A program made the translations under genes and the position numbers. The notes beneath the pieces are model-generated. The model ran no database searches and was not told the DNA's origin. It saw only the letters and a program-made list of their open reading frames with translations. Shown piece by piece: positions 1 to 43,849 of a stretch of DNA of 64,000 bases. Source of the stretch: Amoebophrya sp. A120 (taxonomy: Eukaryota > Protista > Dinoflagellata); contig CAJINV010000012.1 of NCBI GenBank assembly GCA_905178155.1, positions 1,244,492-1,308,491 on the forward strand, written 5' to 3'. Position 1 is the first letter of the stretch; each line of letters begins with the position of its first letter.

Positions 1-60
1 TCATGCCAGGCTAGCATCTCAAATATCGCAATCTCCCAGACCCAGAAATGTTTGCATTCG
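1..60. mobile_element. Introner family A (partial, right end)
   Basis: CCAGACCCAGAAATGTTTGCA TIR. Confidence 0.75.
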
Positions 61-3000
61 CTAAACGCGCTTTTCGTTTTCCCGAACAAACCACCGGCGG
101 TGGTCCTGGCAGAATTGCCCGCCTGGCCGGTTTTGTTCGTCATTGCGGTCGTACTCGTTTCCGAGCCGCGCACGGAGCTGCCTCGGCCCAGCGGCACCAC
201 GGTCGGGGTGTACTGTTCCTGGAATTTCTTCTTGTCGCGGTCCGACCACTGGTCGTAGTTCACGGAAAACATTTGCACGTCGCTCTCCGACTCAGTGACC
301 GTTTCGTGAATGACTTTCCGGCTGTCCACGCCGAAGGTGTTGATCATAATCAGCGAGTTTTCGTGGTACTTCCGGTAGAGCTCAAACCAGCTCCGGACTA
401 TCCCGCCCTTCGTTCGCTTCAGCAGCAGTGCGTACTCGTGGTAGAGCAGGTCAAAATCCTCGATTTTGGTCATGGTTTTCCCGTAAATCTTGATGTTTCC
501 CTTCAGCAAGCAGTATATGACCTGCTTAAACATTACAGTCTCAAACGTTACAATAGAATGTCGAAATCTCTGATGCAAGAGTGCATGATCTAGCCAACTC
601 ACGTAAGATTGCGCATGACACGTTCCGGAGCCCCAAACCCCACTACAATCTGACGAAATTTGTATTGCAAAAGGTGGAACGCTATGCGAGTCTGTCATGA
701 CCATCATGCAACACAAATTCCAGATTCTATTGTAACGTGGTTTGAGATTGTAACGCTTGAGCAAGTTGTACAGTACTGCAGCAGCTTCTTGCAGTTCTCC
801 GGTTTCCAAAATTTTTTGTAGGCTTCCCGGTCGTTTTGCAATAGGAAATTCTTCACCAGCTTTTTCAGCGCTATCTGCCTCCCCTTCTGGCACTCGCAAG
901 AACTGGTGGTTGATGATGATGCAGCAACTCCGCTCGGCGCGGCGGTTGGTGTTGCCGCGGGATAGTCCTTACGTCTTCCGCTAGAAGAAGTAGTCGCTGT
1001 GCTAGTTCCCGTGCCGGCGCTAAAAGAACTGACACCACCACCAGCATGCAAAGAAAAACGTGTTACAGTTACACATCTGTTGTCAATTCAGCAGCACAAA
1101 TTTCTGCGCATGAGGAAGAAAACTTGCAATGCAGAAATCCTACGGGAAAACACCTATGAAACGAGGCTGCTATGCATATTCGGCATGACAGAGCTTGTCT
1201 GTCTTGCTTGGAATGCAACACAAAGTGTAACTGTGACACTTTTTTAGCGCGATAACCACTCGATTCGTAGTTCTTGTTTGGGTCGTAGTCGAACACGAAC
1301 GTTTCCTTGGGCTGCAGTATCAAAATGAAAAATCCCCCCTCTCCATACTAAAACGGAGACTTGTGTAGCGTGATTTGCTACCACAAATTATCGCGTTGTC
1401 ATGCTAGAAGGCAAAAGATGTAGACACTGTAGTGCTGGCTGGCGTGGGAACAAAGCCTTGCATCTTCAGCATGACAGGAGGCAACTGGGAGTGGTGCGAG
1501 ACAGCATGACAAATTGCCTGCAATTCAGGCCACAACAAACTGCGTCTCTTGGCCTTCTAGCAATACAAGTCGATTTGTGTACGCAAATCCAGCATCACAA
1601 ATGTCCTTTTCAATATGGGGAGGTGGGATTTTTCCTCGCAATATGCAGAATGATCGCTTCAAACAGCGTGGAGAGCAGCACGAAGTCTGGGTCTTTCCCG
1701 CTCATCAGGTCGCCGAACACGATGGTCGAGTTGACGTCCATGAAGATCATGATGCGTTCCTTGGGCCGCGAAAACCGCTCGATGATGCGCGTGAAAAACT
1801 CGTCATCGGTCATGGCATCCAAGATGCAGACCTTGCACAGCACCACATTGTACTCCTTACTGTACAGGATCGGCGAGCACGTGGTCTCGCGCGTTGAAGA
1901 TGTCGCGGAGTTTGCGGCTACTTGATCCCCCGCCGGGCGGTCGTCGTTGTTCATCGGGTTTATTTTGCTACTGGTGCTACTGTAACCGTCCTCATACACA
2001 CAGCTCGAAACCTCCTCGAACCCGTTTTTCCCGATCGAAAAATCAACAAACCGCCCGGACACGTCCCGCAAGTTCAAAATCCCGGGCAGAAACTCCGTAC
2101 TCAGCTGCGGCTCGGGTAAGAGTTGCGAGGACCTACTACAGGAAGCGTCGTAGACGCCGCCAGCATAATTTCCGATATTTCCCGACGCATTGATATTGTT
2201 CTCTCCTCCCTCGCCTGCAGAGGTCCGGGCTGAGGACGCTGCTGCTGCTCTTCGGGATTTGATCTTGGTAATACCCAAAGTAGGTGTTTTGGTCACCGAC
2301 TTCTGACTGGATGTTTTCAAGCCCTGTTCTACTCCTTGAAGGTTCTTGTCGTCTGCTGCTGTACTAGTTGCGGCCGACGTGCCTACATTAGTAGTACTGC
2401 TGCTACGATTGCCAGGATGAACATTGTTCCCGCCCGTGGCTATAACTTCCTCTTCAAAAAATTCCAGATTATCGTCGAAGAAGAACACGCAGGTGCGGCT
2501 ATCCCGTGTGAAAACATCTCCACTCCAGAGCTGTCGTGCAATTCTGCATGCCAAAAAGGTTTCTCATGCGGAGCCCTATGAGAGGCATTTGCTTTTCGTG
2601 TTTTGGGATTTGTGATGCTAGGATCAGCATGCTGTGCTAGATCTGTGATGCTTCTGAGCTAGCGAAACAGGATCTCACTACGAGGACAAACTTGTCATGC
2701 CAAACAACCAAAGCTGTGTGATTTGTCTAGCAGATTTCCCATCTTGATTCTGGTGTGGGGACGTTTTTGATCATGATACCGGCTCGCGTAGGAAAAAGCC
2801 GGAATCACCTTCGCGCCGCCGTTCTTGAAAGTTATGGATTGCAAAAATGTCTGGGTCTGGAAGTGGAAACTTGTAGTGCTAAAAGTGAATGATAGAGGCA
2901 CTGCAGTGCGCAGCTATGCATGACAAATTTTTTGGCTACTATGTCTTACGTACTCCGCATGGCAAACTGCATTTTTCCATGACAGGCAAGAGGGCTTTTT

Positions 3001-6000
3001 CGTGCCTATGCAACACAGATTGTCGAGTCATGCCAGGCAAGCATGACAAACTTGCATTCTACTTCCAGATCCTGACCCAGACATTTTTGCATTTGATAAA
3101 AGTCTGCTGCTTCCAAAAGTTGTAGCAGGAAGTAGTCACGTGCAGGCCGTAAAGGTCCTTGATTTTGTGCAAATAGGCGGCGAAGTTGTTTGCGAACTGC
3201 CGCCGCGCCGGGTGAAAGCGGCACGTGGACTATGCAATGCAAAAGCATCGTACTCGTATTGCAATCATGCATTATGCTTCTTGAGGTAAATCAGCATTAC
3301 AAATTTCATTTCTCATGATGTAATGCATTTAATATACGAGTACGATACTTTTGCAATCCATATGGACAGCTGCTTCGCGATCTTGTTGTTGCCGTTGTTT
3401 CCACCAGCCGCACCTGAAACGGATAATTTCGCACTTTCGGTAATGCTTTTCTGTTTCGTTACCACGCTACCTGGTCCTCCCGGCGCCCTCACCATTTCGC
3501 CGCCCTCAGAAGTTGTTGTTGGGCTTCTTTTCTCATTTACATTTCCGCCTCCATCCTCGTCATACCCGCCCTGTTCAAGCGCCGAGACCTGCGGCGCAAG
3601 CACCGCGGTGGGTTTGCTCGAGTACTCGCAACAGCGCGAGAAGTCCACGTCCTGAAGAAGAATGTGCATGTTCGGCACCCCCTTCTTCTCTTTCCTTCGC
3701 TCGTACACCTGCTCGGTGCGGATCTTGTCCACCCGAATGAGCAACTCGATCCCAGTACTACTGCTCGAGGAGGGATGATCCCCCGTCTTGTCAAAACTCT
3801 CGTGCCTTTGTAGTTCAACATCTACGACATCTTCAGCTGAGGTAGCGCATGCTGATAAAAACCCTGCTTCTGCAGCTCGTTCTTCGTTCGCGAGACGAAG
3901 AGCTTCATCTGATGTACTAGCATTTCCATTTTCGTCGAGTGGACCTACATCCTCCCCCACGACCGTCGAAGCGCTGCTGGCACAGCTACTGTAGTTGGTC
4001 ATTTCTTCCAAATAGAATTGAGTGGCTTCAAACAACTTCGAGTGTGTGCAGTGCATGGCCCAGTGGACAATGTCCATCAGGTGCACATACACAATGCACT
4101 CCAGCGAGTCGCGGTAGTTGTACTTCAGGGAATCAAAAATCGCGAGGAGGAGCCGCAGCGCCCGCTCGTAGCCGATCACCTCCCCTCGCTCGCCACTGGT
4201 GCACGCCTCGAAATAGTTGGGCAAGTGATAGTATCCCACGAAAAAAGTGTTACAGTTACACATCTGTAGTCAATTCAGCAACACAAATTTCTCCGCATGA
4301 GAGAGAAAACTTGTAATGCAGAAATCCTACGGGAAAACAGCTATGCAACGAGGCTCCTATGCATATCCGGCATGACACAGCTTGTCTGTCTTGCTTGGCC
4401 TGCAACACAGTCTGTAACTGTAACACTTTTTTCTTGCGATAGATAGCTGAGAAAGCCGGGACGCTCGTGGATGCCGTCCAGGTTGAGATATTCGATGAAC
4501 CGCTTCTGCTCATCGAGAAACAGTTCCGAAAACGCCTGCTGAATCTTCTTCCCCTGTTCAAAGGTGAACACCCGGGCATTGCAGCACAGCTTGATCACCG
4601 CCTTTTTATACATTGCAAATATGTCTGGGACGTCTGGGAAGATCTATATTGGAGGAGTTTTCTCATGCACAATTGTAGTACTTACATGAACCGCGTTCTT
4701 GCCTGATGTAATCCATGCTCTAGCATCTACTTCACACCTATCGTCGCAAAGGCTTCCCTATGCCTATGATCCGGGTGCTCCTTTAATTATAATTTGCTGC
4801 ACATGCAATACAGGTGTATGTAGCATAGAAAGTTAGCATCACAAATCCCATTCTATTTTCAGACCCAAGAAACATACTTGCAATGCATACCGCTCCTTCG
4901 CGGACGAGAGTTCGGCCAGGCATTGCGCGGACCGGTTGTGCAGGTAGATGTCGTAGGCCATAAGAATCGAAGAAGCCACGTCGTAGCTCGTCCCTTGGTG
5001 TTGGTGCGAATTGGCCGCTGCGGTTTTTTTGGAAACAACCAGCTGGTGCGCGTTTTTATTTTTTGAAGATGTCCCGCTGTTCATCATGTCATTGTTTTCA
5101 TCTTCGTGCTTCTGCAGGTCGTTCTCCTGCATTCCTAGCTGTCCAGCTGTTGCTTCCCTTGTAGTTCCGGCTCCACTTGTGAGAGGATCTGCAGTTGAGG
5201 TCAATATCGCCCGCATGGCAGAGGACTCGAGAAAGTATTGCAACGCATGCCGGCCCATCTGGAAATTCCGGAAAACGTTCTCCGTCATCACATGGCCCAT
5301 ATCGGCGAAACACAGGAACTATGCATTGCAAATATGTCTGGGTCTGGAAGAGTGTAACTTGTCATGCTGCATCTGGATCGTGGAAAAATTTGTCTTGCAT
5401 GATCACCAAAAGAGGTCCACTTTTGAACAAGTTTAGAGGCAGTTTCTCATGCACGAAAGGCATGATAGAGATCTCACAGAACCTGTCATGCTAGGCAGCG
5501 CATGCCAGACCGTGTGGGCCATGGAAAACCTGCATGACAAGCCTAGCAATCTTCCAGACGCAGACATTTTTGCATTTGATAGGAACAGATAAAAATGGTA
5601 CAGCTGCATGCAGTCCGGAAGCAGGTCCGGGTGAGGAAGCGATTCTTGTTCCTGTCGCTTATTTCCGCTAGCAAAACCCATTCCTCCCGCTGCAGTAGAC
5701 GTGTGTTGGTCCGGCGTCGCTCTTCGATGCGACGAAGGAGAGGACGCCGTGCGAAGATTTTCGTCGATTCGTGTCCGCCCACTGTGGCGCGGATAACCCT
5801 GCGAAACGTCGTCCATTGTTCTTCCCGCCACCGGATTTATCTTTGTACTTGCAGGTGTTGTTGTACTTCTAGCATCAAGCTGACCGACAGTATGTCCACC
5901 TGCGGTACTAGATGATCTTCCACCACGACCAGCTGCCCGGTCGTTATTTGTACTTCTACTTCCTGCCAATAAAACACTCTTGTTCCAATTCGCGCAGGTT

Positions 6001-9000
6001 TGCAGGATATAAACTGCAAATATGTCTGGGTCTGGAAAGATCCAAGGTTTGTCATGCTTGTCGGACATGCATCTCAACGATCTGTCATGCACATTACCCA
6101 AAAGTGCCACTTTTCTGTCATGCAGAAGCTCGCTTTGTCATGCAGAAAAGCCAAGACTGTAGCACCTCCAAAACTTGTCATGCTTGCCAGTCAAATGAGG
6201 TGTCCTCGTCTTCCGCAACCAGCATTACAAGTTTCCAGACGTAAACATAATTGCAATGCATACAGGAATATCCTTAAGAAATCCAGGGACGCGGGCACGC
6301 ACTCGTTCTGCAGAAACTGGTTGAAGCGAAACCGCATCTGGATCAGGGTCTCGATAACCAGCTGCCACTTTTTGGGCAGTCGGTTGAAGCTTGGCAAGAC
6401 GGCGGCGTTTGTTTTGATCACATGCGTCAACACCGTGGACGGGTCAAAGATGATTGCGTTCGCACTTTGGTCGTTGCTTTTCTTCATCTTCTTCATCTTG
6501 TGTGACTGTTGGATTTGAGACGTAGAAGATTCTGCCTTATTTTTTCCACCACCACTTGCTGACGATGTTGTCCCACCTCCCATAGCCATGCCCAAATCCT
6601 GTCGCAACAGTGGCAATTTTCCGAGCTCGTGGATGGCCAAATAGGCGAAGACCGCGTCGAGAATCTCCTTGTCGAAAATCTTCACGTTTTCCGTCGCCCA
6701 ACTCGTCAGCTCCTTCCAGGCGTAAGTGGTCAATTCCAGATTATTCTTATCCCGAGGTGGATGACCAACGGCGCTCGTAGTAGTTGATGTTGCTGTTCCA
6801 CCGCCACCGGCACCTCCACCGACGGTCATGTAATTCATTTTTCTTGTGCCGGTACTGGCCGGCACTAGATTGCAAAATTCCTCGTATTTGTCCGTCACGA
6901 TGCAAAAGACGGTGAGGAACCCGGAAACCGTGTGCTTCAAGATGTGCTTCGGCGAACGCGACATATCTGAGTACGCCTTCTTTGCCGAGGACGTCGGTGG
7001 CTTTTTACCTGACGCGATAGAATACACAGAACTGTCGCCCAAGTGGTCCTCATCTACTTCTTGCTCATAATCATTTTCATCTCCAGGTCGTGATCCGGAA
7101 GATCCACCATCAGAACTGCTGTTTTTCATCACACCATCAAGATTGTGGAACTTCTCCGCATCCACGAAAAATTCCGAATTGCGCTCGTCGGTTTCATACC
7201 CCCGGAAGTAACAGAGCTCCGGGTAATAATGCTTGATCTCCTGAAGAAATTCTTCCGGCGTCGTCCTCGGTTGACAAAAAAAATGATCCGGTCGTGCAGC
7301 TGTCGCTCGTCCTGCGCGGCCGTGTTTAGATACACTTCGTTGTGATGAACGACCCAAAGCACCAGCTGCGGCTGCGGCATGTGGTCCTCGAAAATCATTT
7401 CCACCGACACCGGAGATGTCTTTGTCTTTCCTCGCTGCTCGATGTTCATTGTGAAGATTGTCATTATTTCCCCCAGGTCGTTTCTTCTGCTCGAAGTGGT
7501 CAACAGAAGTATCTTCATCTTCACGGTCCTCGTGCGAGCTCCACCCTAAGATTTTTTTCGAAATGAATTCTCCCGCTTTTTCCGACAAATTTCTCAAGAT
7601 CCTCTCGTCCTCTATCGGCACCCAAGGGCGGGCACTGACGAGGTATTCTTGGTCATAAGCCGCGCCCGCCTTGCTCGTGTTGTGGTGTTCTTCGTGGTCC
7701 GACACGCTCCGGATGGGAAACAAGTCCAGCCCCACGTTCTCAAATTTCACGGCGGAACTATAGGATTTCGTAAACTGGGTCAAATCCCGAAACTGGATCT
7801 TTATCGGCTCATGTTTACTTCGCACAACATGTTCTTGCGGAGGACGAAACGAGGTTGAGGCTCTACTAGTACTGAGAAAGTGATTGTTCGACGAAGCCCT
7901 TGTGGTATTTTTCATCCCCGTGGTCGTTGCTGCCGATGACGATATTTTTCCGACGACGCTGCTCTGTGCAGCGTCGAAAACTTTCAGCAAGATTTTCAAC
8001 GCGTGTACCAACTCGATCCGGGGGTTCTCGATCGCCGCCTGGAAAAACAAATGCGCGTCAGAAAGAACGAACAGTGTGGATGAGGAACCACCGGCAGCTC
8101 CATAGAACGACAACCCCACACCGCGGCCCGGTTGATGAAAAGTGTTAATACTGCTAGAAGTCGTACTACCCTGAATGGTCACCAGACAACTACCTTCCCT
8201 GCTGCTGTACTTTGACAAGTACCCTTCCAGACGTTCCCACGCGCCCCGATATCAACTGCAAAGATGTCTGGGTCTGGAAGAGTGCCAGCCTTGTCATGCA
8301 GGTTTTCCATGACCCATGAGGTCTGGGATGTAGGACATAGCATGACAGATTCTGCGAGAGTTCTATCATGCCAATCCTGCATGAGAAACTGCCTCTCGAT
8401 TAGGTCAAAAGTGGACAGCTTGTGGTAATCATGCAACACAAATTTTTACATGATTTAGATATAGCATGACAAGTTGCTTTGTTCCAGACCCAGACATTTT
8501 TGCATTTGATACCCGATCCTCTTTCACCATGGTCGCGATCGCGTCCCGCAGCAGTTCCCCGTGTATCGCTATCCTGAGTAAAAACGTCCCTACACCAGAG
8601 CCAAGGTGGTAAATCTGCTAGACAAATCAACCAGCTTTGGCTGTTTCGCATGACAAGTTTGTCCTTGTAGTGTGATCCTGCTTAGGTAGTTCAGCAGCAT
8701 CACAGGTCCAGCACATCATGCTGATTATAGCACCACAAATCCCAAAACACGAACAGAAAATGCCTCTCATGGGGCCCAGCATCAGAAACTTTTTTCGCAT
8801 GCAGATTTGCATGGCAACTCTCAGGTGGGGACGTTTTTGCAAAGGATACTCGCCCCGATTTCCGTGCTGACACTGGTTGCGCTCGTCAGGCACGCGAGCC
8901 GCACCATCGCGGGGTTCACGGTTTTCGGGGTTCCGATCGATTTCAATTCGATGAGCACCGGGACCGACGTCGCTAGCCGGATCAGGTAGTTGTAGTAGAT

Positions 9001-12000
9001 TGCGTCCTCTGTCATTTCGGAATCGTAAAAGTCCAGCAGAACGAGGAGCGCCTTTTCGATCTCATCGAAACTTTTTTGTGACTTTCGCGCAGATGGAAAA
9101 GCGGATGATGTTACGTGGTCAACACGACGACCGGTTTCACTGTCATTGTCTTTCTCTTTGACTTTGTCTGCTGCTGTGCCTCCTGCATCAAAATTCGTAG
9201 TGCTTGTCACCTTGCTCTTCCTGTAGTTCTCCGTTCCATAGGTTGCTTTTTCATTCCCGCCATTTCGACTTGCAGTGCCACTCTCGCGCTCGCCAAAAAC
9301 GACTGCCTTGTCAGAAGTGTGATAAAAATTCGAGCAAAACTGGCACGCCTGTTCTAGGGTTAAAACCGCGAGAAAGAAGGCCAAGCCCGAAGAGGATTGG
9401 TCGGCTATGCTGAGCAAAAACGTCCCCACATCAGAGTCAAGATGGGCAATCTGCTAGACAAATCAACCAGCATTGGCTGTTTCCCATGACAAGTTTGCCC
9501 TCATAGTCTAATCCTGTTCAGCTAGTTCAGCAGCATCCCAGATCCATCTAGCACATCATGCTGGTTCTAGCATTACAAATTCCAAAAGACGACTAGAAAA
9601 TGCTTCTCATGGGGCTCCGCATGAGAATCTTTTTTGGCATGCAGATTTGCATGACAAGTCTGGGGTGGGGACGTTTTTACTCAGAATATCGGTGTAAGCA
9701 AGGTCTCCCTCCGGTTCACCCGAAATAATCCCTGCGTAGCTGTCGACAGCAGGTGGACCACGAGCCAGCTCATCTGCATCGAGTTTCATGATGTTCCGCA
9801 TGTTATACAAATCCACCAAGCTATCCCCTACGGTTTCCCCGCGAATGAACTGCTCAAAAGAGAAGTCCGAGTCCAGCGTTTCGTACACGAATCTCTTCAA
9901 CGGGCCATCCAATCTGGCAAAACTGGGGAACAGGTTCGGAATCTGCGTTTCCAGTGTAAGTTTCTTTCTCTGGTGTACAACACCTTCGTTGGTCGTTGAA
10001 AAAGTCGTGTGCCCGTCGTCGTCTGTTTTATTTTTGCCATTCGGGATACTGCTGTCACAGTCACCGTGGCCATGCTCCTCAACGAGCCCGAGTTCAAGAA
10101 TTTCCAGCACGAACGCGTTTTTCTGCCAGGGGGGTCGAGAGGAAGTCACAGGACTTTTCATCACTGAATCACCTTTAGAAGAAGAAGTAGTTCTACACCC
10201 GCCAGTTGTCGTGCCTTCTACCTTCTTGTCCACCTCCGTACTAGAGCTACAGCACTTCCGCAGTAGCCTCTTCACGTCCTTCCTGAATCTCGCCACATTG
10301 TGCAGCCGCGAGAGAATCAAGCACACAAAAACCGCGTCCAGAACTTCCGGCCCGGCCTCTGCGATCGGTTCGATAAAGCACTTCTGCAGGTTCTTGAAGG
10401 AACGCTTCGAAATCATTGAAGGAGCTCTCGAAAAAGCGGAGGTTGTGCCGCTACTACTCTCGTTGGCTGCACCACTTGCTGCTTCATGAGGAGCGGGGTT
10501 AACATCTCTAGGCGGCGTGCCGGTCGTAGTCGTTGACGGTTTGATATAATTTCCCGTGGACGTCGCAAACACGAAACCGTTGTAATCGTCAGATAATAGG
10601 TAGTAAAAAGCGGCACAAAGCCGCCGCACCTCGTCTCTTGCGGCACTTGCAACATTGATGTAGTAGTTCTTTGACTTTTCTGGAAGTAGATGTTGTGTGT
10701 TTTCATTGTCACGCGGCTCCAAATTATGTTGAGCGACGTCCGACTGAGTCCAATAGTACCCGAGTTCCGGATAGACATTTTGCAACCTCGTGAACAAGAG
10801 AAATGTTTCGGCCTCGTACGATGTCTTCTGTCCGCCATTCGCCAGAAGCTGCAGACCGGCGGAGTACAGTACCCCTGTCCGCATATTAAACCGCCTACGT
10901 TTGATCATATTTCCGGTGCTTCCCAGCCTAGGAATTCGTGACGGATTATCTTCCGGGCGGGAGGAAGCTGACTCCATGAGTTCGTCGGCAGAGGAAGTAA
11001 AATCTTCGTATTTATTTCCACTCCCAGAACAATCATCTGAGCCCGCAGACGTTGACTCATTTTTCATCTCGTATGCTGTTTCCTCATCCTCGACATCTTC
11101 ACCTTCATCCCCATGATCTTCTTCTTCCGACAAACCATCATCAGCGGTTTCCTGCCGACTCAGGGACCCCCGCGCCCCAGCTTCCAGCATCTTCGCAACC
11201 AGAGTGTCGGCAAACTGCAACGCAGAAGTTTGAATTTCGCTGATCTCGACCGGATCCAGGAAAAACCGCCAGGGAGAGAGCTTTGCGACAAATTGTCGAG
11301 TTTGATGTTCGTCGGCTACGGTCGCCCCTATTCTTGCGGGTTCATCGTCGTTCACGCGGGTCGTCGTCGTCGTGTGATTTTCGACATAGAAAAATGTGCT
11401 ATGCTCGTAAAGGAAGGAGGCGACCTGATGCGAAAAGTTGTCTTGCGCAAGTCCAGCAGTATCGTTTTCGTTGTTCTGAACTGCCGGTACGATTGTGTCA
11501 GTTTCAAAGGCGTGAACGTGATCGTCTGTTTCCTGAGAAATAAACTCGTTTGAAGACGAGGACCTCTGAACTGGGTCGACGACGTTTTCTTCTCCATTGG
11601 TCCAGATGACATTACGCAAGTCGTTCCTGTGCAGTGCGCCGATACCGATTAGGAAAGCCAGGTCAACACAAATGTAGTTGGACTCTTGAAGTTCGTGTTG
11701 ATGCGCCACCACATCAACTCCGTCGATGTTGATGTCGTTTCCTCGCTCCTGCTGCAAGGGCGGCTGCTCTACTCCCCCTACGGTCCGAGAAGTTAAACGC
11801 CACAGCCTTTCCGCCTCGTCGCACACTCGCAAGAGCAGCTTCAAAGCACGTTCGAGGCCGATGAAAGTAGAGTTTCGGGCAGATTTCAAAAAAACCGACA
11901 GTTCTTGGATCAAGAGTTGCGGAGGTCCGGAGAAATTCTGTTGCTTTCTGTGTGTTGTTGAAGATGCAGTAGCTCCACTTGCCATGCTTGGAGGAGATGT

Positions 12001-30000: not shown

Positions 30001-33000
30001 CTCCTCCTCCTGTTGCGACTTCGCAAAGGTGGCAACTTTCTTCAGGGAGATCTTCCAGTCATCCCCGGAAAGCTTCTATGAATTGTAAAAATGTCTGGGT
30101 CTGGAAGATTGCCAGGTTTGTCATTCATATTTCGCATGAGCTATGATGCCTGCAATGCATGACCTAACATGACAGATTTTTAGAGCGTTTCCTGTTGCCG
30201 ATTCCGCATGAGAAATGCCCTCTGCGCGTAGCGCAAACTGCGCTCTTCTTGCTCGTCATGCAATACAGATCTTTTTGGAATCCAGAGACACCATTACAAG
30301 TTGCAACCTTCCAGACCCAGACATATTTGCAGTTCATAGCTTCCGCAGCCGAGCGATTTGCCGCAGTGTGAACAAAATGAACTGCAAAAGTATCGTACTC
30401 GTATAAATGCATGACAAATTTCCTCAGCATGAGAAACAAAATTTGTAAATGCAGATTGACCTTAAGAAAAGGATTTGTAATGCATGTTTGCAATACGAGT
30501 ACGATACTTTTGCACAGGATAAACAGAACCGAGTCGGCCGAAGTGGGGTGTGTGGATGAATCTACTAATTCCGCGTTGTGGCAGATGGTTTTCTGTAGAG
30601 ACACCGAGGAAGTCAGCAAGCGGACCGCCTCGCACATGCGCTGGAACTATCGCGAGGAGAAATGAATCCCCCCTCCCCATATTGACGAGGTACGTTTTCG
30701 AAAATTTGCGTTGCTGATTTGTGGCCACAAATCGTCTCTGTGTTGCATGAAGGCAACTCCGCAGGCTCCGCCGCATTCTACAGGCGGTTTTCCATGCTGA
30801 TGCTCCTACAACAGCGCAGACGACGTCTTCCATGCTAAGCGCCTAGGACCAAACCTGTCTACTCAGGCTTGATATGGGCCTGCAGTCCTCGCCAGCAAGA
30901 CAAATCTGATTTGTGTACGCAAATCCAGCATCAGAAACTTCGGTTTGACATGGGTAGAGGGGATTTTTCGTTTTGATAGGAACGACTTAGCAGCCTGTGT
31001 CTCGTCCACGGTCAGTCGCGCCTTCAGCTGGCGCACGGCCTTCTTCCACTTGTTTTCCTGGTGTGCGGCGCTAGCCGCGTTCACACTGCTACTTGCTTTT
31101 GCCGATGAAGATGCCCCAATGTTGCCAAAGATCAAGCTGGCTTCCTCATTGCAAAAAGCGTTGCCAAGATGACTGCTGTGCACCTTGGTGACCGCCTTCA
31201 CAATCAATTCGTCGAGCTCCTTCTCCGTTCGCGGAAGTTGCGGCTCAGCACAAGAGGATGTTTGTGATGATGAGGATGAAGATTTTGCCCCGATATTACC
31301 AGGTGAAAATTTGTTTTCATCCAGTAATGCTGTGATTAAGTGCACCAAGATCTCTTGGTCCACGGAAAACCAATCGCCCACGTTGAACTCCTCAACGATT
31401 TTCCGCACTTTGGCTTCTTGTCTCACATTGTCCTCTAGGTCACCAACGTAGTTCCTTTCTTGTTCTTTCTCGTCTGCAGGGCCTTGCTCCTGCTGTGCTT
31501 CAATCGTTATTTCGTCTTCCTTCTTCTCACGATGCCCTCCTGCGGTCCAGCCGCCCGGTTTTCTGAGTTGCTGGCCCTGCTCCTCGTCGGGTTTCTTTCT
31601 TATCAAGCCGCAGAACTGCAGCAGTTGCTGACAGGTAACCGGCAGAATCGTGTACTCGAACAACAAGGCTACTTCCAATTTGGCCAAATCGTTGAACAGC
31701 GGCATGTCTTTGCTGGTCGCGAAGTCAATCATCCACACCGCATCCATGGCGTCCACCAAAATGTTAGCCGCATTCAGATCCCCGTGCCCCAGCGCCAGAA
31801 GGGGCTGGTACTCCTGCTGCAGTAATTGAATTCTCCTTTTTATCGTGGCCGAATTCATTCTTGCATGGAGGTTTTCCCGATCATTATCTTCTCGTGAAGA
31901 AGTCGTGTGTTCCTCGAAAAGATCTGATATCTTACGCATTTTCTGCTGCAGCGTCAACACGCTGTGTCGGACGTCGGGCCAGGCTGGTGGCGCACTGGGG
32001 CGGTATTTGTTTTCCTTTCCTACTTCCTGGTGGTCGTCCGTCTCTGGTCCTTCTGCCGGTCGTCCAGCAGTCGATTCTCCATCGCGATGATCGTCTCGTG
32101 CCATATTGTTCTCATGCTGTTGAGTGGTCGTCCCAAGACCACCAACCTCTTTCCGCGATAAGGCGACGACATTCTGGTACAGTTCTATCAGGTAGTCCCT
32201 ATCAAATGTAAAAATGTCTGGGTCTGGAAGAATGCAGGAGTTTGTCATGCAGATTTTGCATGGCCCATGAGGTCTGTGATGCATGCCCGAGCATCAGAGA
32301 TTTTGCGAGCGCTTTCTGATGCTCATACCGCATGAGAAATGCCCTCTCCGCGAGGCACAAATTACACCTCTTTTGCTGTTCATGCAATACAGATTTTATG
32401 TAGATTCCAAAAGTAGCATCACAAGTTGTATCCTTCCAGACCCAGACACTTTTACAGTTGATAGTCCCTTCCTGGAAACGATTCCGTATTCCACCAGGGG
32501 TTGAACTTCGTGTCCTTCCCCTTCAACTTGTACACGGTAAAGATCGTCGCGCTCCGGCTCCGTCGGATGCTCAAACTCGGCCCAGAAGAGGCGGATTGAT
32601 TTACTATTTGGGGGTGTTGCTGAGTAGTTATAGACCTCGTGTGTAGTGCCGGCAAACTGGACTGCTCCACAGCAGAAGTGCTGGTTGGTGTGAAAAAGGG
32701 TCCAGCGGATGCTTCGCTTCCTTCGCGGCCGTGGCCACCGGTGGGCGCGTTGGTAGAAGCGCCACCGAAGGAAGCGCCAGCTGTTGTGGTGTAGTTGTTT
32801 TGTTGAAAGTTTAGAAGGTTCACGACTCGCGAAACCCGCTATAGCAGTGCACAACAACTCGTCCCCTGCTCATACTCATTTGTCACATACCAAATCCAGG
32901 TCTTGCCTTTGAGCACATTCTGCATAACAGAGCTTGAAGGAACCACCTCACACAGCACTACAATTATCCGACGTATGGAGAAATTAAGTTTCCTCATGCA

Positions 33001-36000
33001 GAAGCCCTATCTAATCCGCTGTCATTTGTATTGCCGCTCATGCCCCGCAAACGAGGGGGCCAGGGAGTGTTGCGCTCTCATACCCGCTTCTGGCTTTCCG
33101 CGACGCGGTTGCTGCTCACGTGCCGCATCTGGCGGAGCATGCCCCCGGTGCCGAGCAGTTCCGTGACCACCATTATCAAGAGGAAAAATGGCCCCTCCCC
33201 ATATCAAAAGAAAATCAGAGAAAATTTCCGACGCTGGATTTGCGTACACAAATGAGGTCTGTCTTGCTGTAAGGAATTGCGGGCAGCTTCAGGTGCGCAA
33301 GGATCTAGCTGTTTAGCATGGGAAACGCCTGCCCCGTAGGCCAAGCAGCATGACAAACCGCATCCATAATGTCGCGCATCCCTCACCGCTTGCCTTTTTG
33401 CAAGACAAAAATGATTTGTGACCCCAAATCTGCATCACAAGTAGCGACGGATGCCTTTTCAATATGGGGAGGGGGGATTTTTCTTCACAATAACCATCTG
33501 CACGTTCCCAAACGGCGGAATTTCCTCCACCGGGAAGTGTTTCGGCAGGAGCTGCGACGCAGATTCGTAGAGAAACAGGTCCTTAAAAGTCGACAGGTAT
33601 CGTGAGGAAAAATCCCGCCTCCCCATATAGAAAAGGCATGCGTCCTAAAATTTGTGTTGCTGATTTGAGGCCACAAATCACATTTCTGTTGCAAGAAGAC
33701 AAGGGCAGAGGCTTTCGCCCCATTATGGAAGCGATTTGTCATGCAATTGGGACTAAAGGGGAGCCGCCTGCCATGCTGAACAACTAGCCCCATACGTCCC
33801 TACCTAGCCTGGGGATCTGGCCGCAATGCCTCTCTGCAAGCTGATTTGTGTACACAAATCCAGCATCAGAAATTCCGTTTTGATATGGGGAGGGGGGATT
33901 TTTCCTTTTGATAACAGGAGCGAGGTGTTTGCGTGCGCGGCGATGCTGGCGAACTCGGGCACCTGCCAGCACGCCCCTTATGGCGTTCTCAACTGTTACA
34001 TTCTCAGCTGTTGCATGGATTTGTGATGCAAGAATGGCAAGAGTGCAAGGCGGAAGATTGCGCCTTTTGCATTACAAGTTTGGCGCAGATTCTAATGCTA
34101 TCTAGTGCGACGTCGAGAACCTGTCATGCAAAGCGGCTTGATCCTGTTGTAGACTAGACATGTATTGCACTTTTCCATTACAAATTTTTTTTTTTTTTTG
34201 CAAAGAGGGGCGGATCACGGCCCTTTTTAGACGGGCTAGCCAGGCTACGGAATCATCATCACGACAATGAAAGAGAAAACTAGAAAAAAAATCTATTGAC
34301 CCCCCGGATTCGATGCCTCGCGGCAGTTGCGGACGCACGGACTGTACCTTTCAAACCCGACCGCATAGGACGCGCCCGCGTATGGAAGACGACTGCAGCT
34401 TTGGCTTCTTGTTTATGAATTGTTCTATTCACCGATAGGAAAGAGCACCGGATCTGCCGGGGCCTGGCAGCCAGGCCTACAAAAACTATGCAAGAGCCCC
34501 CGCTCTACCGCACTATCTTGGTAGAGCAATTCGCAAACTCTGCAAAGCGCAACGATGTTCTATATATCCGCGCCGGTTGTTGGTCTTGTCTGGTCTCCTC
34601 GTCGGTACTCTGACTTGCCCCCTTCCAGTGTCTCTCGCCCTTACAAAAGTCACATGCTGATTGGGGTTGTAATGCAAATCAATAGCACAGGTGTCCGCGC
34701 GGCCGGCGACTCAAGCGCTTCAAATAAAAACTACATGCCATTGCCCTCTATGAGCGTCTGGCAGCTGCACGAAGACCCCTTTTTTACTCGGCAATCGAGG
34801 CGCATCCGCTGTCCCCCCATAGGGTCAATGAATGTAGGCAACCCAATCATCATGCTTTCTACCAAGTCCAGTCTACTGCCTGTGGCTGTGGGCCTTCATG
34901 CATATGAGACAGAGTCAAGCCCGAGTATTTGGAGTATGCAATATCTTATCCCCGAGAAAAAAAAATATAGTGCTGCTACTTGTTTTTGGAGAATGAGTCA
35001 TCTTCAAGGATGCGCCTCCTCATCGATGAGGAGGTGCTTGCATCCTGTTCTTTTCCTTTCTCTTTATTTGCCTGCTTATCCATACAAAAACATGTCACAC
35101 AACTTACAACCAGTCGCAGGAAATGACGAAAGTAACGCATCGCAGAAGAGGGCCATGTGAGTGTATCTGTATTTTACACCGACCTGTAAACGTAAAACGA
35201 TGACCGATTTTTTCCCTTATCATTCACGACCCTATGATCTACCCTACGAGTTTGCTCATTACAAATTCAAATCCATGTACCAGTTGAGAATGTAACATTT
35301 GAGAGTCCCATACCCCCGCGAGCTCGAGTTTGAAAGCGCCGAGCTCAATTGAGGAGCCTGCGGCCTCGCTGTCCTGCTTCACTGACTGTTGTTCTCCTGA
35401 CAGCTGCTGCTGCGCGCTGCTCGTGTTGTTACTTCTTGTTCCTCCAGCACTGTGATCTTCCACCACCTCGGTCGGGGCCGAGAAACAAAAGACCGGGTCC
35501 CCTAGAACCTTCGCCGCACGGTCTTGCAGCACCTCGTACACCTTCAGGGAGTTCTTGACCTCCTCGCGAATGGAGCTCGCATGGTATCATTTGTAAAAAC
35601 GTCCCCACCTCCCCAGGGTTGTAATGCAAATCTGCATGCTGAAAATGTTTCTCATGCGGAGACACATGATGAGAAGCAGTCTTTATTGGCGTTTTGCAAT
35701 TTGTGATTCTCGCATCCGCATGGTGTGCTAAATTTGTGTTGACGCTGCTTCACTAGCTAAACACGACTACATTGCAAGCCAAAATTTTTCATGCGTAAGA
35801 GCCAAAGCTGGGTGATTTGTGTAGGAGTGAGGTAACAAACTAAATCTGGAACTTCGCGGTTGAGTTCTCATCCGGCCGGTGGCCGGATGAGAACTCAACC
35901 AGATCGGCGGCGGCCGGTATCCGGCCGGCCGGCCTGCCCGATCCTCTTCCCCCCTCCTCCAATTGTCGACCCGCTCTTCTCCCCCACCCACCCCCGAGCC

Positions 36001-39000
36001 GCGTTGCTTCACTATGCAAAAAGCCCCACACTTGTCACGCAAGGACAGCGGAGCAAAGTGCTGAAACCCACCAAGCAGATGCTTGCGCTTTCGTCTCTTA
36101 GCTTTGATCTATGCTGCTCTTTCCGCTTATATTTCATGCAGTTTGCACTTTCTATTTTTCATTTGCGCTTCTGTGTTTGCGGCCTCTACTTCCGCTGGGG
36201 GTGCTCGAGTCTCAGGAGCTGGCTCCACCGATAAACCACTGGCATTGAAACGATAAGCCGCTTAATAAAGCGAGAAGCCGCCGAAAGTGGGGACCCGCTT
36301 AAAGCGGGGAGCCGCTGAAAGCGGAGGAACCGCTGGGGGCGGAGAACCGCTGAAAGCCGGTAACCGGTGACAGCGGGCTACCGCTGAAAACGCGCATCCG
36401 CTGGAAGCGGGCCACCGCTGAAAGCGGGGAACCCGAGCGGGCAACCGCTGAAAGCCGCGAAGGCATGGCTTCCCATTTTTCGCGCCTCCCCGCTTCCAGC
36501 GGTTGTCCGCCCGCTGCCAGGGGTCTATCGGTGGAGTCTGCTGAGACTCGACCACCCCCGACGGCAGCAGCGTGCTGGCGTCTGTCTCCCCCTGGTTGTT
36601 CCTATGGGGCCCCGCATTTGGACAGAGACAGGAGCGGGCGGTCTCCGCCAATAACCTAGGGCGCGCGAGTGCCACCATCGTGGTATCCTGGATAAAAACG
36701 GAGGCTGTGACTCCGCCCCGAAGCTGCGAGGCCCAGAAAAAACGCAGTGGCGGTAAAGGCGTGCCTGATATTACTTACGTAGCAGTAGCGCTGAAGCAAA
36801 GCGCAGTCGCTCCGTTTGCATTGGATAGAGCTGCCGGAAGTACATCAAACCCAGAAGCACAAAGTAGAAAAAATGGAAAGCACAAACCGCGTGAAATAAT
36901 AATAGGAGCGGAAATTATGGCCGCTGCACAGATAAAGAATAGAAAGCGCACGCGTCTGCTTTTGGGGTTTCGGCGCTTTCCGCTGCCTTTGCATGGCAAA
37001 GCTGGGGCTTTTTGCGTTTGCCTAATAAAACAACGCGGCCCGTGGGCGGACAGGGGAGAAGAGTGGGTCGACCGGTTGAGGACGGGGGAAGAGGACCGGG
37101 CCGGCCAGCCGGATTCCGCCGGTGATGTGGTTGAGTTGTCATCCGGCCGCCGGCCGGATGAGAACTCAACCGCGAAGTTCCAGATTTAGTTTGTTACCTC
37201 ACTCTAGCAGATTTTCCATCTTGACTCTGGGGTGGGGAAGTTTTTTGCTCACCATACGTGGTCAAGCTTCACGATGACCGCCTCTTCCGCAATGTTTTCC
37301 GAATCGAACGGCTGCACGCGCAGGACCAGCGACCCCGAAAACCCGCCGCACAGCTTGCTCGCCTCGAACTTCCGCCCAAACATCTGCAGCAGGAGCGTCT
37401 CGTACGCCTGGCGGTACTTGTGCTCCCCAAAAATGGTCTCCATGAGCTTGTGCAACTGAACCGAGGTGGAAGATCCCTGCCGGTCCACGCCCGTGCCGGA
37501 CCCGCCCAGCGTTCCCCCCGCGCCGAAGGCCGAATGCAGGCCATGATGCGCAGCAGTACCGGCACTGTTCCGCGTGCAGAGCGACATCACACAACTGGAC
37601 TTATACCAGGAGTAAAACGAAGTCATGTTCGTTCGCTTGTCCGTGGTGGTGAAGTATCAATTGCAAATATGTCTGGGTCTGGAAGAGTGCAGATTTTTGT
37701 CATGCTATTTTTGCATGACACAGCAGGTCTGTCATGGAAGCCCTAGCATCACATTTTTGAGAACGTTCCGCAATGCTCATTCCGCATGACAAATCCTTCT
37801 TTTTGGTGACAGGAAGTGGGCACCTTTTGCTGCCTATGCATGAGAGAATTGCGCGTGTAGTGGAGTTCGCATTACAAGTTTGGAGGACCCTTCCCGGCCC
37901 AGACATATTTGCATTTGGTATGAAGGATTCGGGCTGCGGAACCAGGTGGAGTTTGCGCAAAAACCACTCTCGTCGTTTTTGTCTACTGATTTGATGATGT
38001 AGTTCCTTGTGCTTGCTGATGTTGCATGTAGCAGGAACGAGTTGCTGCTGGTTCATCTTCGTGCCTCCTTCCTCAGATACTGGCTCCGCAACACGTTGCT
38101 GCTCAATGAGGCGTGCCTGTTCGACGCCGCGGTCCACCGCCGGAAGATCTTCATCATGTTCATGTTTCGGGCCGTAGTCGACGACTTGGTAACACACCTC
38201 GTGCTTTTGGATCACGGTGGGCAGAAAAATCCTCGACGTTGCTTTTGTTGCAGCCCCATCGGATTTTGTGGTAGATAATGTCGATGTAGTGCCGCTTTTG
38301 GTGTAGAAATGTTGATGGCCGCTTTGCATCCCGGTGTAGGAAAAAGAACTGGGTGGCCAGTAACAAACACCTTCGGCCGAGCCCCCATCGATAGTAGGCC
38401 CCGCTGCACCTCCAGCCGGTCGACCACTCGACGTAGTTGTCACCGCAAACGCGTAGTTGGTGCGCGAGGGTTGATGTGCAGCAGTGCCAGAAGAAAAGAC
38501 TCCTGCCGGCGGTCGTCCGGTCGTGGTGCTGCTGATATTAGAAGAAGTCCCGGCGTTGCTGGACAGCGGCTGCAGAAAGCTGCCAGTCCCTTTCGGCGCA
38601 ATCGCCTCCCGCACGACGTCTGCGTCCGTCTCGGGCAGGTCAAATTCTTCGAGGAAAAACCGGACCACCGCGTCCTCGCACGTTTCATCCGTTTTTTTCC
38701 GGATTTCAAATGCAAAAATGTCTAGGTCTGGAAGATTGCCAGGTTTGTCATGCATTTTTTGCATGACGCCTGATGCCTGTAATGCATGAAAGAGCATCGC
38801 AGATTTTTAGAGGGCTTCCTGATGCCTTCTATTCCGCATGAGAAACGCGCTCTCCGCGAAGCACAAACTGGGCTCCTCTTGCTGGTCATGCAATACAAAA
38901 TTTTTTTTGAATCCCAAAACAGCATGACAAGTTGCGACCTTCCAGACCCAGACACTTTTGCAATCCATACCGGATTTCCGGCAGCAGCTGGCTTTGATTG

Positions 39001-40481
39001 GTAAAAAACAGCCGCCCGTTGCTCGCCTGCTGGTGGGAGCGCACGAGATATCCTGATCAAAAACGTCTACACGCCAGAGTTGTCATGCAAATCTACATGC
39101 CAAAAAAGTTTCTCATGCGGAACCCTATGAGCAGCATGCTCCCGTCGCGTTTTGGGGTTTGTGATGCTAGAATCAGCATGATGTGCTAGATCTGTGATGC
39201 TTCTGAGCTAGCTTCTAAAGAGGACTACACTACGAGGACAAACTTGTCATGCCAAACAGCCAAATGTGGTTGATTTGTCTAGCAGATGTCCCATCTTGAC
39301 TCTGGTGTGGGGACGTTTTTCCTCAAGATACAAGAGTCTGGTTGTTCGCGGTTTCCAGCCGAATAGCGACCACTTCAATCACCCGCTGCAGATTTGAGGT
39401 CGTGGAGCACGGAGGTAACGCACCATCGTCTGCCGAATCTGGCGCGGCCGGGTAGAAGTTCGGTGTAAAACTATCCTCCCCCTGCTGGAATTTTCTCGCT
39501 GCCGTCGTCCCCGCCGGCCTTTTCATCTCCTGTCGCAAGAGTTTATTCTCCTGCTGTGAAACAACAAGTTGTTGTTCCACCGCCGCTTTACTCTTCGCCG
39601 TCGCATCGAGGTTCCTCTGTAAGGAGCAGTATTTCGCTTGCAACTCGTCCCAGAGCGAAGAGACCGCGTCGGTTCCTGGGGGAAAAGCGGTGGAGGGTAT
39701 TGTGAAGAAAATTTCCCCACCCCAGAGCTGTCATGCAAAATGGCATGCCTAAAAATATTTCTCATGCGCGGCCCCATGAGAGCCATTTTCTGGCGCTATC
39801 TGGAAGTTTGTGATGCTACAATCAGGATAAGGTAGTCAATTTCTGATGCGTCTACACTGCCTCAAACGGCACTACACTACGAATCCAGATTCGCCATGCA
39901 AAACAGCCACAAGTTCTGGATTTGTGTTGCAAGATCCCCATCTTGCCTCTGGAGTGGCGGTGGGGACGTTTTTACATACGATAGAGGGTGCGGTGCCCCC
40001 CTTGCGGAGGTTGCCTGGTGTCGTGTGGGTGCATTGAAATGGAAATTCGCGATGGAGGGTGCTGGCGTAGCAAGTGCAGCTCTCGGTGCGGTGTAAGTAG
40101 ATCGACAAATAATCCTTCTTTTTCTCGAGAACGAGAAAGAAGAGGAACTCCAACTCGAATCGATGCAATAAAAACAAGAAAGTTAAAACCCTGCATGGAA
40201 AAGAGCATTGATTCTCGTTCTTCATGATGCAGAACGAGAGAGCCATCATTTTTTTCTTGTTTGATAAACAGCTTACTTTTATTCTCGTGCGCGTGGTCCT
40301 CTCCACCACCAATCGATTCTGAGTCGTCCACGCGCAGAACATTTTCCGCGATCAGGAGCTGCCTCAGATCCTCCTCGCTGTCAACCCGCAACGCAAACAG
40401 TGACTTGAGTTCCCGGAGCTCCTTCCGCAGTTGCTCGTTTTGCGCCTGCAGCCGCCGGTCTTCTTGCGCGGTCATGGTCAT
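61..40481 (-). CDS. Giant multi-exon gene (~9,000 aa, 3' end runs off the window): APH-like kinase - NACHT - ankyrin - 3x DUF6829-like - HAD-like
   Basis: I joined 40 consecutive introner junctions from ~40030 down to 61 (element + one 5-bp TSD removed), and each stays in frame (e.g. VIVKLDH|ASSIREE, SQ|ELIPLLIP, FGEETL|GLAHPE, KLLQYC|LLKGNIK). The link to the first exon (~40270-40481) is unresolved. Confidence 0.85.
516..770. mobile_element. Introner family K
   Basis: Long imperfect TIR; TSD CAGTA. Confidence 0.85.
1045..1254. mobile_element. Introner family D
   Basis: TIR GTGTTACAGTTACA; TSD ACCAG/ACCAC. Confidence 0.85.
1318..1643. mobile_element. Introner family C
   Basis: TIR GAAAAATCCC..CCATA; TSD TGCAG. 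Confidence 0.9.
2500..2778. mobile_element. Introner family B
   Basis: TIR AAAACGTCCCCAC-like; TSD GCGGC/CCGGC. Confidence 0.9.
2833..3098. mobile_element. Introner family A
   Basis: TIR TGCAAAAATGTCTGGGTC; TSD AAAGT. Confidence 0.9.
3231..3362. mobile_element. Introner family E
   Basis: TIR TGCAAAAG(C/T)ATCGTACTCGTA; TSD TGGAC. Confidence 0.9.
4232..4441. mobile_element. Introner family D
   Basis: TIR; TSD GATAG. Confidence 0.9.
4607..4889. mobile_element. Introner family A (diverged)
   Basis: TIR; TSD decayed (CTTTT/CCGCT), but removing element + 5 nt is in frame. Confidence 0.8.
5320..5581. mobile_element. Introner family A
   Basis: TIR; TSD GGAAC. Confidence 0.9.
6008..6262. mobile_element. 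Introner family A
   Basis: TIR; TSD CAGGA. Confidence 0.9.
8250..8511. mobile_element. Introner family A
   Basis: TIR; TSD CCCGA. Confidence 0.9.
8570..8848. mobile_element. Introner family B
   Basis: TIR; TSD ATCGC/CTCGC. Confidence 0.9.
9406..9688. mobile_element. Introner family B
   Basis: TIR; TSD TCGGC/TCGGT. Confidence 0.9.
14046..14262. mobile_element. Introner family L
   Basis: TIR TATGA..TGCA..CTCATTT; TSD CAGGG. Confidence 0.9.
14716..15024. mobile_element. Introner family F
   Basis: TIR AATG(A/G)AAAATGCCCCCA; TSD TCACT/TCACC. Confidence 0.85.
15088..15366. mobile_element. Introner family B
   Basis: TIR; TSD TGATG. Confidence 0.9.
16455..16625 (-). other. Two ankyrin repeats
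   Basis: TALHSAARLNAAEICQILLDCNADSFVQDANGWLPMHYACLQGNSSVVHLLL. Confidence 0.9.
21953..22234. mobile_element. Introner family B
   Basis: TIR; TSD CCGGA/CCAGA. Confidence 0.9.
22517..22725. mobile_element. Introner family H
   Basis: TIR AAAAAACTGTTTCACTGTGA; TSD CCTGA. Confidence 0.9.
23306..23516. mobile_element. Introner family I
   Basis: TIR CTG(T/C)GTAAGTGTA; TSD GTCGT. Confidence 0.85.
24959..25218. mobile_element. Introner family A
   Basis: TIR; TSD TGCTC. Confidence 0.9.
25779..25932. mobile_element. Introner family E
   Basis: TIR; TSD ACCCC. Confidence 0.9.
26496..26816. mobile_element. Introner family C
   Basis: TIR; TSD TGCTG. Confidence 0.9.
27789..28044. mobile_element. Introner family A
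   Basis: TIR; TSD GATTA. Confidence 0.9.
28108..28375. mobile_element. Introner family A
   Basis: TIR; TSD GTGGC/GTGGT. Confidence 0.9.
28437..28680. mobile_element. Introner family A
   Basis: TIR; TSD AAAGT/ACAGT. Confidence 0.9.
28924..29098. mobile_element. Introner family G
   Basis: TIR ATCCCACAGAAAAAAGCTGGCAGG; TSD GCACA. Confidence 0.9.
29148..29357. mobile_element. Introner family D
   Basis: TIR; TSD GCCGG. Confidence 0.9.
30077..30338. mobile_element. Introner family A
   Basis: TIR; TSD GCTTC. Confidence 0.9.
30376..30521. mobile_element. Introner family E
   Basis: TIR; TSD AACAA/AACAG. Confidence 0.9.
30648..30978. mobile_element. Introner family C
   Basis: TIR; TSD GGAAC. Confidence 0.9.
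32200..32463. mobile_element. Introner family A
   Basis: TIR; TSD GTCCC. Confidence 0.9.
32840..33082. mobile_element. Introner family L
   Basis: TIR; TSD CCCGC. Confidence 0.85.
33174..33492. mobile_element. Introner family C
   Basis: TIR; TSD ACCAT. Confidence 0.9.
33598..33913. mobile_element. Introner family C
   Basis: TIR; TSD ACAGG. Confidence 0.9.
33979..35312. mobile_element. Introner family M carrying a retroposed insert
   Basis: TIR TGTTACATTCTCA(G/A)CTG; TSD CCCCT/CCCCC; junction ELAG|ACWQ in frame. Confidence 0.85.
34187..35256 (-). mobile_element. ~1.07-kb poly(A)-tailed retroposed insert (SINE-like or LINE 3' fragment), nested in an introner
   Basis: T-run at 34185-34199; 11-bp TSD CATTACAAATT at 34176 and 35257. 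Removing it returns the host to ~253 bp. Confidence 0.8.
35825..37204. mobile_element. 1380-bp non-autonomous TIR element (MITE) with 3-bp TSD TAG, nested in a family B introner
   Basis: Near-perfect TIR GAGTGAGGTAACAAACTAAATCTGGAAC..., imperfect out to ~200 bp. TAG at 35822 and 37205; uninterrupted B copies have a single TAG at this site. Confidence 0.92.
36295..36460. repeat. Tandem array of ~17-18 bp palindromic units CCGCTGAAAGCGG
   Basis: About 9 degenerate copies inside the MITE. Confidence 0.85.
37655..37920. mobile_element. Introner family A
   Basis: TIR; TSD TGAAG. Confidence 0.9.
38704..38969. mobile_element. Introner family A
   Basis: TIR; TSD CCGGA. Confidence 0.9.
39049..39330. 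mobile_element. Introner family B
   Basis: TIR; TSD CGAGA/CAAGA. Confidence 0.9.
39698..39983. mobile_element. Introner family B
   Basis: TIR; TSD GAGGG. Confidence 0.9.
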
Positions 40482-43830: not shown

Positions 43831-43849
43831 TTACACCCCCGTCAACCAT

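Follow-up and report, generated by a model that had tools for sequence, protein, structure and literature searches.

A kinase–NACHT–ankyrin gene encoding more than 9,000 residues across introners in Amoebophrya sp. A120

RESULTS

One gene interrupted by introners

The window, the whole stretch of DNA that was analyzed, comprises 64,000 nt of Amoebophrya sp. A120 (contig CAJINV010000012.1, positions 1,244,492 to 1,308,491), and its minus strand carries a giant kinase–NACHT gene that is real and is one gene (Table 1). The encoded protein contains, in order, a coiled coil, a degenerate NUDIX-like domain, an APH-like TCAD9 kinase, a NACHT module, ankyrin repeats, three HD-like DUF6829 domains, and a circularly permuted HAD-like module. 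An earlier, sequence-only reading had proposed that dozens of short open reading frames (ORFs) merge into one stop-free frame of about 27 kb once 40 introners are excised, each with one copy of its target site duplication, and for most of the locus this was borne out. Excision of the 40 elements, each with 5 nt, gave a minus-strand frame of 9,155 codons running from 40351 to 3; in a random-phase splicing control (n = 2,000), the median was 2,327 codons and the longest frame 5,482. Excising the element with 0, 1, 3, 4, 6, or 7 additional nt left a longest frame of at most 2,316 codons, while 2 and 8 nt, which preserve the phase obtained with 5 nt, gave 9,195 and 8,017 codons.

The 5′ end is where introner excision did not suffice. 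With introners alone excised, the exon beginning at ATG 40481 does not share the phase of exon 2; it is homologous to the N-terminal coil of the protein family, so one additional intron is required, and the interval 40276-40015 was picked for its GTAAG donor among 55 in-frame GT/GC-AG options. Across the resulting 41 junctions, a single splice rule yields 9,090 codons without a stop. At the other end, position 61 is not the end of the gene, as had been supposed. A stop at that position was rejected because the end of a 41st introner occupies bases 1-63, and a contig from sequencing run X7 that maps to 62-363 carries 99 extra letters past 62. The gene thus runs off the window, with the 41st introner carrying it past the edge, and the protein has at least 9,090 aa. 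The A25 protein continues for about 410 residues beyond its last aligned block, which predicts a tail of comparable length here.

Alignments with homologues cross 30 of the 41 junctions, a few of them weakly, and 11 are uncrossed. Placing the start of one element at 4603 breaks the frame and was rejected in favor of 4607, which restores it; there the alignment with the Amoebophrya A25 protein runs ungapped over the junction, at 73% identity.

Table 1. Features of the giant gene and its introners (window coordinates)
Feature	Position	Strand	Remarks
Gene model	64..40481	-	42 in-window exons, 27,272 nt, 9,090 aa, without stop, 3′ end open
First coding exon (ATG 40481), coiled coil	40277..40481	-	Profile of 7 homologues, E 1.9e-5; start inferred from sequence
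Predicted canonical GT-AG intron, 262 nt	40015..40276	-	Frame requirement; exact ends inferred
NUDIX-like domain, aa ~88-506 with inserts	37584..39667	-	Degenerate Nudix box; family profile E 1.5e-13
APH-like TCAD9 kinase, aa ~547-1106	31606..37461	-	GFSG, VKLD, HGDLN, IDF, D..KLE intact
Family-conserved helical region after kinase, with middle region	23599..31399	-	Family profiles E 2.5e-16, 2.7e-28
NACHT module	17356..22798	-	Walker A GSSGSGKS 22777-22798, altered Walker B 21307-21337, sensor-1 Arg, P-motif helix, winged-helix region
Ankyrin repeats, two clear	16432..16645	-	Pfam Ank_2 E 1.2e-10
DUF6829 (HD-like) copy 1	11757..16156	-	HD position reads RN, distal Asp retained
DUF6829 (HD-like) copy 2	7948..10917	-	HD position reads SR, most decayed
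DUF6829 (HD-like) copy 3	3996..7819	-	HD position reads HE, distal Asp retained
HAD-like module, circularly permuted	233..3172	-	FFDDN half 1786-3172 precedes DVNST/NTFG half 233-1774
40 introners, 132-1,672 nt	516..39983		TAT...ATA inverted ends, 5-bp duplications
End of 41st introner	1..63		Up to 34/40 bases match introner-family ends

The 5-bp duplications flanking the 40 introners, which are introns of transposon origin, are perfect in 27 cases, carry one mismatch in 12, and carry three in the remaining one. TAT-N7-AAA occurs at one or both ends of 36, and only 1 of the 40 can be written as GT/GC/GA..AG within its duplication. Introners of A120 were reported by Farhat et al. in 2021 (PMC7789003) to be non-canonical, with inverted repeats of TAT, seven variable bases, and an A-run, and with direct repeats of 3 to 5 nt at their boundaries. 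The motif seen here matches, and the introners therefore represent an already known phenomenon, the same in their inverted TAT/A-run ends and boundary repeats and with no difference in kind. They differ in that 41 lie in one gene, two are enlarged to 1.3 to 1.7 kb, and one contains a nested element; tens of introners in a single gene have been noted (PMC12130899). The nested element, ~1.38 kb long at 35825-37204, has long near-perfect terminal inverted repeats and sits inside the introner at 35585-37256. A 1,334-nt inverted-repeat element at 33979-35312, far longer than most introners, is in phase as an intron.

Elsewhere in the window, minus-strand exons at 43,500-46,400 were considered as part of the giant gene and rejected, since stops intervene; they are treated as a separate upstream gene, which has four further introners, two of them with degenerate duplications. 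A LINE-like element on the minus strand at 50752-54363 shows endonuclease, reverse transcriptase, and RNase H matches and is broken by a stop. Further along, at 56305-63096, the minus strand holds more introners together with repetitive coiled-coil or Met/Lys-rich coding stretches.

RNA evidence for splicing

Splicing was followed in run X7, a probable RNA run whose RNA status is a guess. Its contigs skip 510-771, 1039-1255, 1312-1644, 3225-3363, and 5313-5581, each exactly one element plus 5 nt (5 of the 40 introners), and a single 770-nt contig spans three of these five junctions. A sixth joint, located within an introner, probably reflects a repeat artefact. Exon coverage extends to ~12,300 at a depth of 2 to 7 that declines away from the 3′ end, with nothing past 16,000, as would be expected of poly(A) RNA more than of DNA from a strain whose sites are empty. 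None of the listed data sets that contain the stretch is registered as RNA. Among the four runs compared on 1-20000, X8 gave little, X9 almost nothing, and X5 no exon reads. Raw RNA runs X4 to X6 gave no exon reads over 21000-40900, only partial fits located, where shown, at introner ends; because the strain identity of these runs is not established, their blanks are uninformative on expression.

A family in dinoflagellates and their relatives

The protein is a member of an apparently undescribed family in dinoflagellates and relatives. Its nearest named homologues are in Amoebophrya A25 and AT5, and the named sources overall are Amoebophrya, Prorocentrum, Polarella, Polykrikos, and Perkinsus. 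Part of the third DUF6829 copy, used as the query, matched 43 proteins. TCAD9, ankyrin, and DUF6829 were found in one chain in 11 of 18 scanned homologues; NACHT reached E<=0.001 in 6 of these 11 and exceeded the Pfam cut-off in 3. A second search, with the compact homologue P0048, gave 16 matches and added 6 proteins with all four families, including Perkinsus chesapeaki FOL47_010776 and a second Prorocentrum cordatum protein. The core of NUDIX-like domain, kinase, NACHT, ankyrin, and three DUF6829 copies is the same in P. chesapeaki FOL47_010776, P. cordatum CAK0894799.1, P0028, and, in pieces, A25 (CAD7960795.1 and CAD7960797.1); it is conserved in Perkinsus and dinoflagellates.

Differences lie in size and at the margins of this core. 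Whole homologues measure 3,080 to 4,103 aa, compared with more than 9,090 for the window protein; the HAD-like module is absent, N-terminal, or permuted and C-terminal depending on lineage, and HD is intact in Perkinsus. Single-ORF homologues of 2,000 to 4,500 aa share the core, and P0028, a complete transcriptome ORF of 4,103 aa, is collinear with the window protein from the kinase to the HAD-like module. Eight compact homologues from metagenome contigs (P0034, P0035, P0037, P0043, P0048, and P0090-P0092) are single ORFs of 1,970 to 2,568 aa that form one clade (98/100), and their host looks intron-poor. The great length of the window protein represents lineage-specific padding in a family of 2,000 to 4,500 aa. 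When long homologues of the largest exon were sought among 5,743 candidates of 3,839 to 5,000 aa, only ankyrins were found.

Gene finders were expected to fragment such a gene, and public annotations are indeed fragmentary. In A25, the orthologue is distributed over at least two models, GSA25T00018168001 (876 aa), which is the kinase end, and GSA25T00018170001 (5,589 aa), which starts inside the NACHT; the AT5 orthologue model has 914 aa, and a public protein of 51 aa is identical to part of one window exon. Among the openly available articles searched, none was found on this protein family or on DUF6829, and TCAD9 appeared in one.

Domain content

Profiles built from 13 homologues recover the complete series of modules in sequence, covering 37% of the protein; S, T, G, A, N, and Q are more frequent (50% versus 40%) in the ~63% outside the matched regions. 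The kinase, Walker A motif, ankyrin repeats, three DUF6829-like copies, and HAD-like motifs recognized by the sequence-only reading are all present in the order given, while the NUDIX-like domain and the HD-like nature of DUF6829 had been missed. That reading had also looked to profiles for support of its kinase and NACHT assignments. For the kinase, support came directly from Pfam TCAD9 (PF19974; E 1.8e-12, 47.6 bits, cut-off 40), in keeping with the proposed kinship to an APH-like domain of bacterial conflict systems, whereas for the NACHT it came by way of homologues, the Pfam model scoring E 0.021 on a single exon, below cut-off, and family-built profiles E 1.8e-16 and 6e-28.

In the kinase, the HGDLN-N, DF, and D-K-E residues are invariant in 14 of 14 aligned homologues and GFSG, Lys, and Glu are conserved in at least 90%; all are present and intact in the window protein. 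An aminoglycoside phosphotransferase (Z 8.9, rmsd 2.3, 88 aligned) shared the place of best structural match to a homologue's kinase model with a pre-40S ribosome chain; the kinase and NUDIX fold matches alike derive from a homologue model of mean pLDDT 58.5 and lie at Z 6 to 9. The nearest kinases outside the family are bacterial isochorismatase-TCAD9-phosphatase fusions (P0013-P0021, ~780 aa, bacterial-type), with which the window protein shares its catalytic motifs, a score above the Pfam cut-off, and phosphatase-like domains in the same chain. A kinase tree of 27 rows, which left out 2 of 9 bacterial rows and names no donor, joined the window kinase with that of AT5 (100/98) and two Prorocentrum rows with three others (100/99), with the bacterial rows apart. 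An association of TCAD9 with vWA-MoxR-VMAP conflict systems is given in PMC10910872, and active APH-like kinases are described among the effectors of conflict systems (PMC7159879). No vWA, MoxR, or VMAP partner was seen among the scanned exons of the window. The eukaryotic kinases differ from bacterial TCAD9 kinases in forming a well-separated clade, in the window without such partners in view, and in being embedded in a STAND protein.

The region between kinase and NACHT is conserved in the family. Its middle part (23599-27784, minus strand) is conserved in dinoflagellate homologues, looks absent from Perkinsus and the compact homologues, and may, from its sequence, hold two Tudor/SH3-like barrels.

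Walker A (GxxGxGK[ST]) is kept in the window NACHT and in 13 of 13 aligned homologues. Walker B (hhhhDGhD[ED]) is absent from the window protein, which reads VVFLFDNDT, with FDNDT in place of DGLD[DE]; the [DE]G[LV][DE]D form is intact in 11 of the 13 homologues and altered in P0024 and P0028, and P0089 reads DGLEE. SPTMLSMVLCYW and FAFQKYMAA align with the family's helical domain, including its conserved Pro, and with the winged helix that follow the P-loop (profile E 1.1e-26); the usual winged-helix His is absent family-wide. Inserts of hundreds of residues split the window NACHT, which, together with the altered Walker B, suggests that it may be inactive. The NACHT region of P0043 matched two antiphage models at E 2.3e-5 and 0.022, far below their cut-offs, and PADLOC gave weak partial matches only.

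The metal-binding HD pair is absent from all three DUF6829 copies of the window; it is intact in all three copies of Perkinsus P0089 and in other homologues, and decayed in proteins of the core-dinoflagellate clade. A DUF6829 model (pLDDT 87.6) had as its best VIA match a tRNA-processing enzyme (Z 10.5, rmsd 4.0, 198 aligned), although Z 13 is attainable by chance for helical bundles. Nuclear-receptor domains made up 25 of the 50 VIA rows, and among the 49 rows other than the best, 23 (Z 5.4 to 7.3) can be taken, by their titles or families, as proteins of HD/PDE type. The closest folds include tRNA- and poly(A)-processing enzymes. Cas3_HD matched weakly (E 1.3e-4 and 1.5e-4), and the atlas places DUF6829 in an HD cluster (score 0.92) with HD on 13% of members. 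Foldseek at E<=0.001 returned no match for the DUF6829 or P0012 models, and a PDB sequence search with DUF6829 returned nothing useful. Intact DUF6829 copies share HDxGK, the distal Asp, and weak fold and profile similarity with HD/PDE phosphohydrolases and the body domain of tRNA nucleotidyltransferase; the window copies differ from HD/PDE phosphohydrolases in lacking the HD pair and show no significant Foldseek match.

NUDIX hydrolases were the top Foldseek rows for the model of homologue P0012 (E 0.003, prob 0.9-1.0; VIA Z 7.4), and MutT matched P0028 at E 0.023. The Nudix box consensus is GX5EX7REUXEEXGU; in this family its spacing is kept and the first Glu is lost, RE having become RF in the window protein and RW or RF in homologues.

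The HAD-like assignment is at motif level only, with the conserved DVNST, NTFG, and FFDDN as candidates for HAD motifs I (DxDxT), II (S/T), and IV (DD) and with Asn in place of the second Asp; the region had no match in Pfam, NCBIfam, or PDB sequences. In 4 homologues, DxNxT, [RN][ST]FG, and FDDN are N-terminal and follow the normal order; in the window protein, A25, and P0028 they are C-terminal and permuted, and no match to the motifs was found in Perkinsus or the compact homologues. A design with a kinase at one end and a phosphatase-like module at the other, as envisaged at first, is therefore not general in the family.

DISCUSSION

The architecture of a STAND/NACHT-type family, apparently undescribed though present in databases, is what is new at this locus; introners were already known. 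In STAND proteins, a central NTPase connects a C-terminal sensor with an N-terminal effector (PMC4986451). On our preferred reading, in which our confidence and our doubt are about evenly balanced, one gene with at least 41 introners encodes a STAND-type switch of more than 9,000 residues, whose NACHT would restrain the APH-like kinase for as long as the predicted sensor, formed by the ankyrin and HD-like region, has not detected a nucleotide or other phosphorylated ligand. The NACHT would bind nucleotide and, with its Walker B altered, may hydrolyze it poorly here. The kinase would be the output, and the substrate that it phosphorylates is probably, as with APH-family kinases, a small molecule or linked to a nucleotide; the NUDIX-like and HD-like domains would bind and not cleave, at least in this lineage, and the HAD-like module may reset the signal. 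Such a protein would serve as a conserved cellular stress or metabolite checkpoint, not as a fast-evolving pathogen receptor. Arguing for a nucleotide-switched kinase with ligand-binding pseudo-enzymes is the observation that the kinase alone keeps its catalytic motifs in every homologue having it, while HD and NUDIX motifs decay and their domains persist.

The sequence-only reading had likened the protein to an NLR immune receptor, and the layout agrees: kinase, NACHT, and ankyrin follow the effector-NOD-repeat order of NLRs, here with 2 to 3 ankyrins in a fixed arrangement. Fungal NACHT-ANK proteins, as outlined in PMC4986451, likewise have an N-terminal effector, a central NACHT, and ankyrins thereafter. 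The window protein departs from them in its APH-like kinase effector, in its few ankyrins followed by three HD-like domains, in its additional NUDIX-like and HAD-like modules, in a Walker B altered in this lineage, and in a winged-helix His lacking throughout the family. That it is a true NLR-type immune receptor, in which the ankyrin and HD-like domains would serve as decoys that a product of a virus or parasite engages, the NACHT would oligomerize, and the kinase would trigger defense or cell death, seems unlikely to us. The domain order, the association of TCAD9 and of active APH-like kinase effectors with conflict systems (PMC10910872, PMC7159879), and the faint antiphage matches of P0043 speak for it. 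However, fungal NLRs form large, shuffled repertoires with variable repeats (PMC4986451), whereas here the core modules keep one order from Perkinsus to core dinoflagellates, named lineages group with support in the kinase tree, and, within the clusters looked up, each named genome is represented by one locus or by isoforms of it.

We are marginally more doubtful that the protein is a multi-enzyme complex for nucleotide or RNA-end processing, in which the kinase would act with HD, NUDIX, and HAD hydrolases, the NACHT would be a structural relic, and the Amoebophrya copy would retain mainly kinase and HAD-like activity. All accessory domains have phospho- or nucleotide-hydrolase folds, Perkinsus retains three intact HD...D motifs, tRNA- and poly(A)-processing enzymes are among the closest folds of DUF6829, isochorismatase and phosphatase domains share a chain with the nearest bacterial kinases, and the window Walker B is altered. 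Against this, the conservation of Walker A in all 13 aligned homologues and the window, and of Walker B in 11 of the 13, suggests a working switch in most of the family, and HD catalytic residues have been lost repeatedly from domains that were retained. That the locus is instead two or more neighboring genes, or a decaying gene, whose long frame is never one protein, is highly improbable: the A25 models are distinct, the AT5 model is short, and no RNA joins the halves (X7 exon support lies below ~12,300), but the frame stays open over 41 junctions under one splice rule, both A25 models lie on 757,468-bp contigs two numbers apart with the second beginning inside the NACHT, and homologues are single ORFs.

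A further reading, unlikely in our estimate, is that dinoflagellates and perkinsids have in common an ancient and undescribed NLR-like receptor class that couples a bacterial conflict-system kinase to HD- and NUDIX-derived nucleotide sensors. Should this be so, these protists would have an innate-immune or nucleotide-alarm pathway, and in Amoebophrya the receptor would have swollen to more than 9,000 residues and more than 40 non-canonical splices.

The analysis delineates a STAND protein family that is conserved in dinoflagellates and perkinsids and in which a HAD-like module has moved between protein ends with circular permutation; with compact homologues of ~2,000 aa, the mechanism is open to testing. 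Very large genes can lie hidden, in fragments, in introner-rich Amoebophrya annotations, and the rule of one element plus one duplication recovers them. The first fold leads are offered for DUF6829, as HD-like, and for a previously unannotated NUDIX-like domain. Stand-alone DUF6829 clusters (atlas, P0045) are mostly eukaryotic with Ascomycota commonest, so the HD-like lead may extend to a fungal family.
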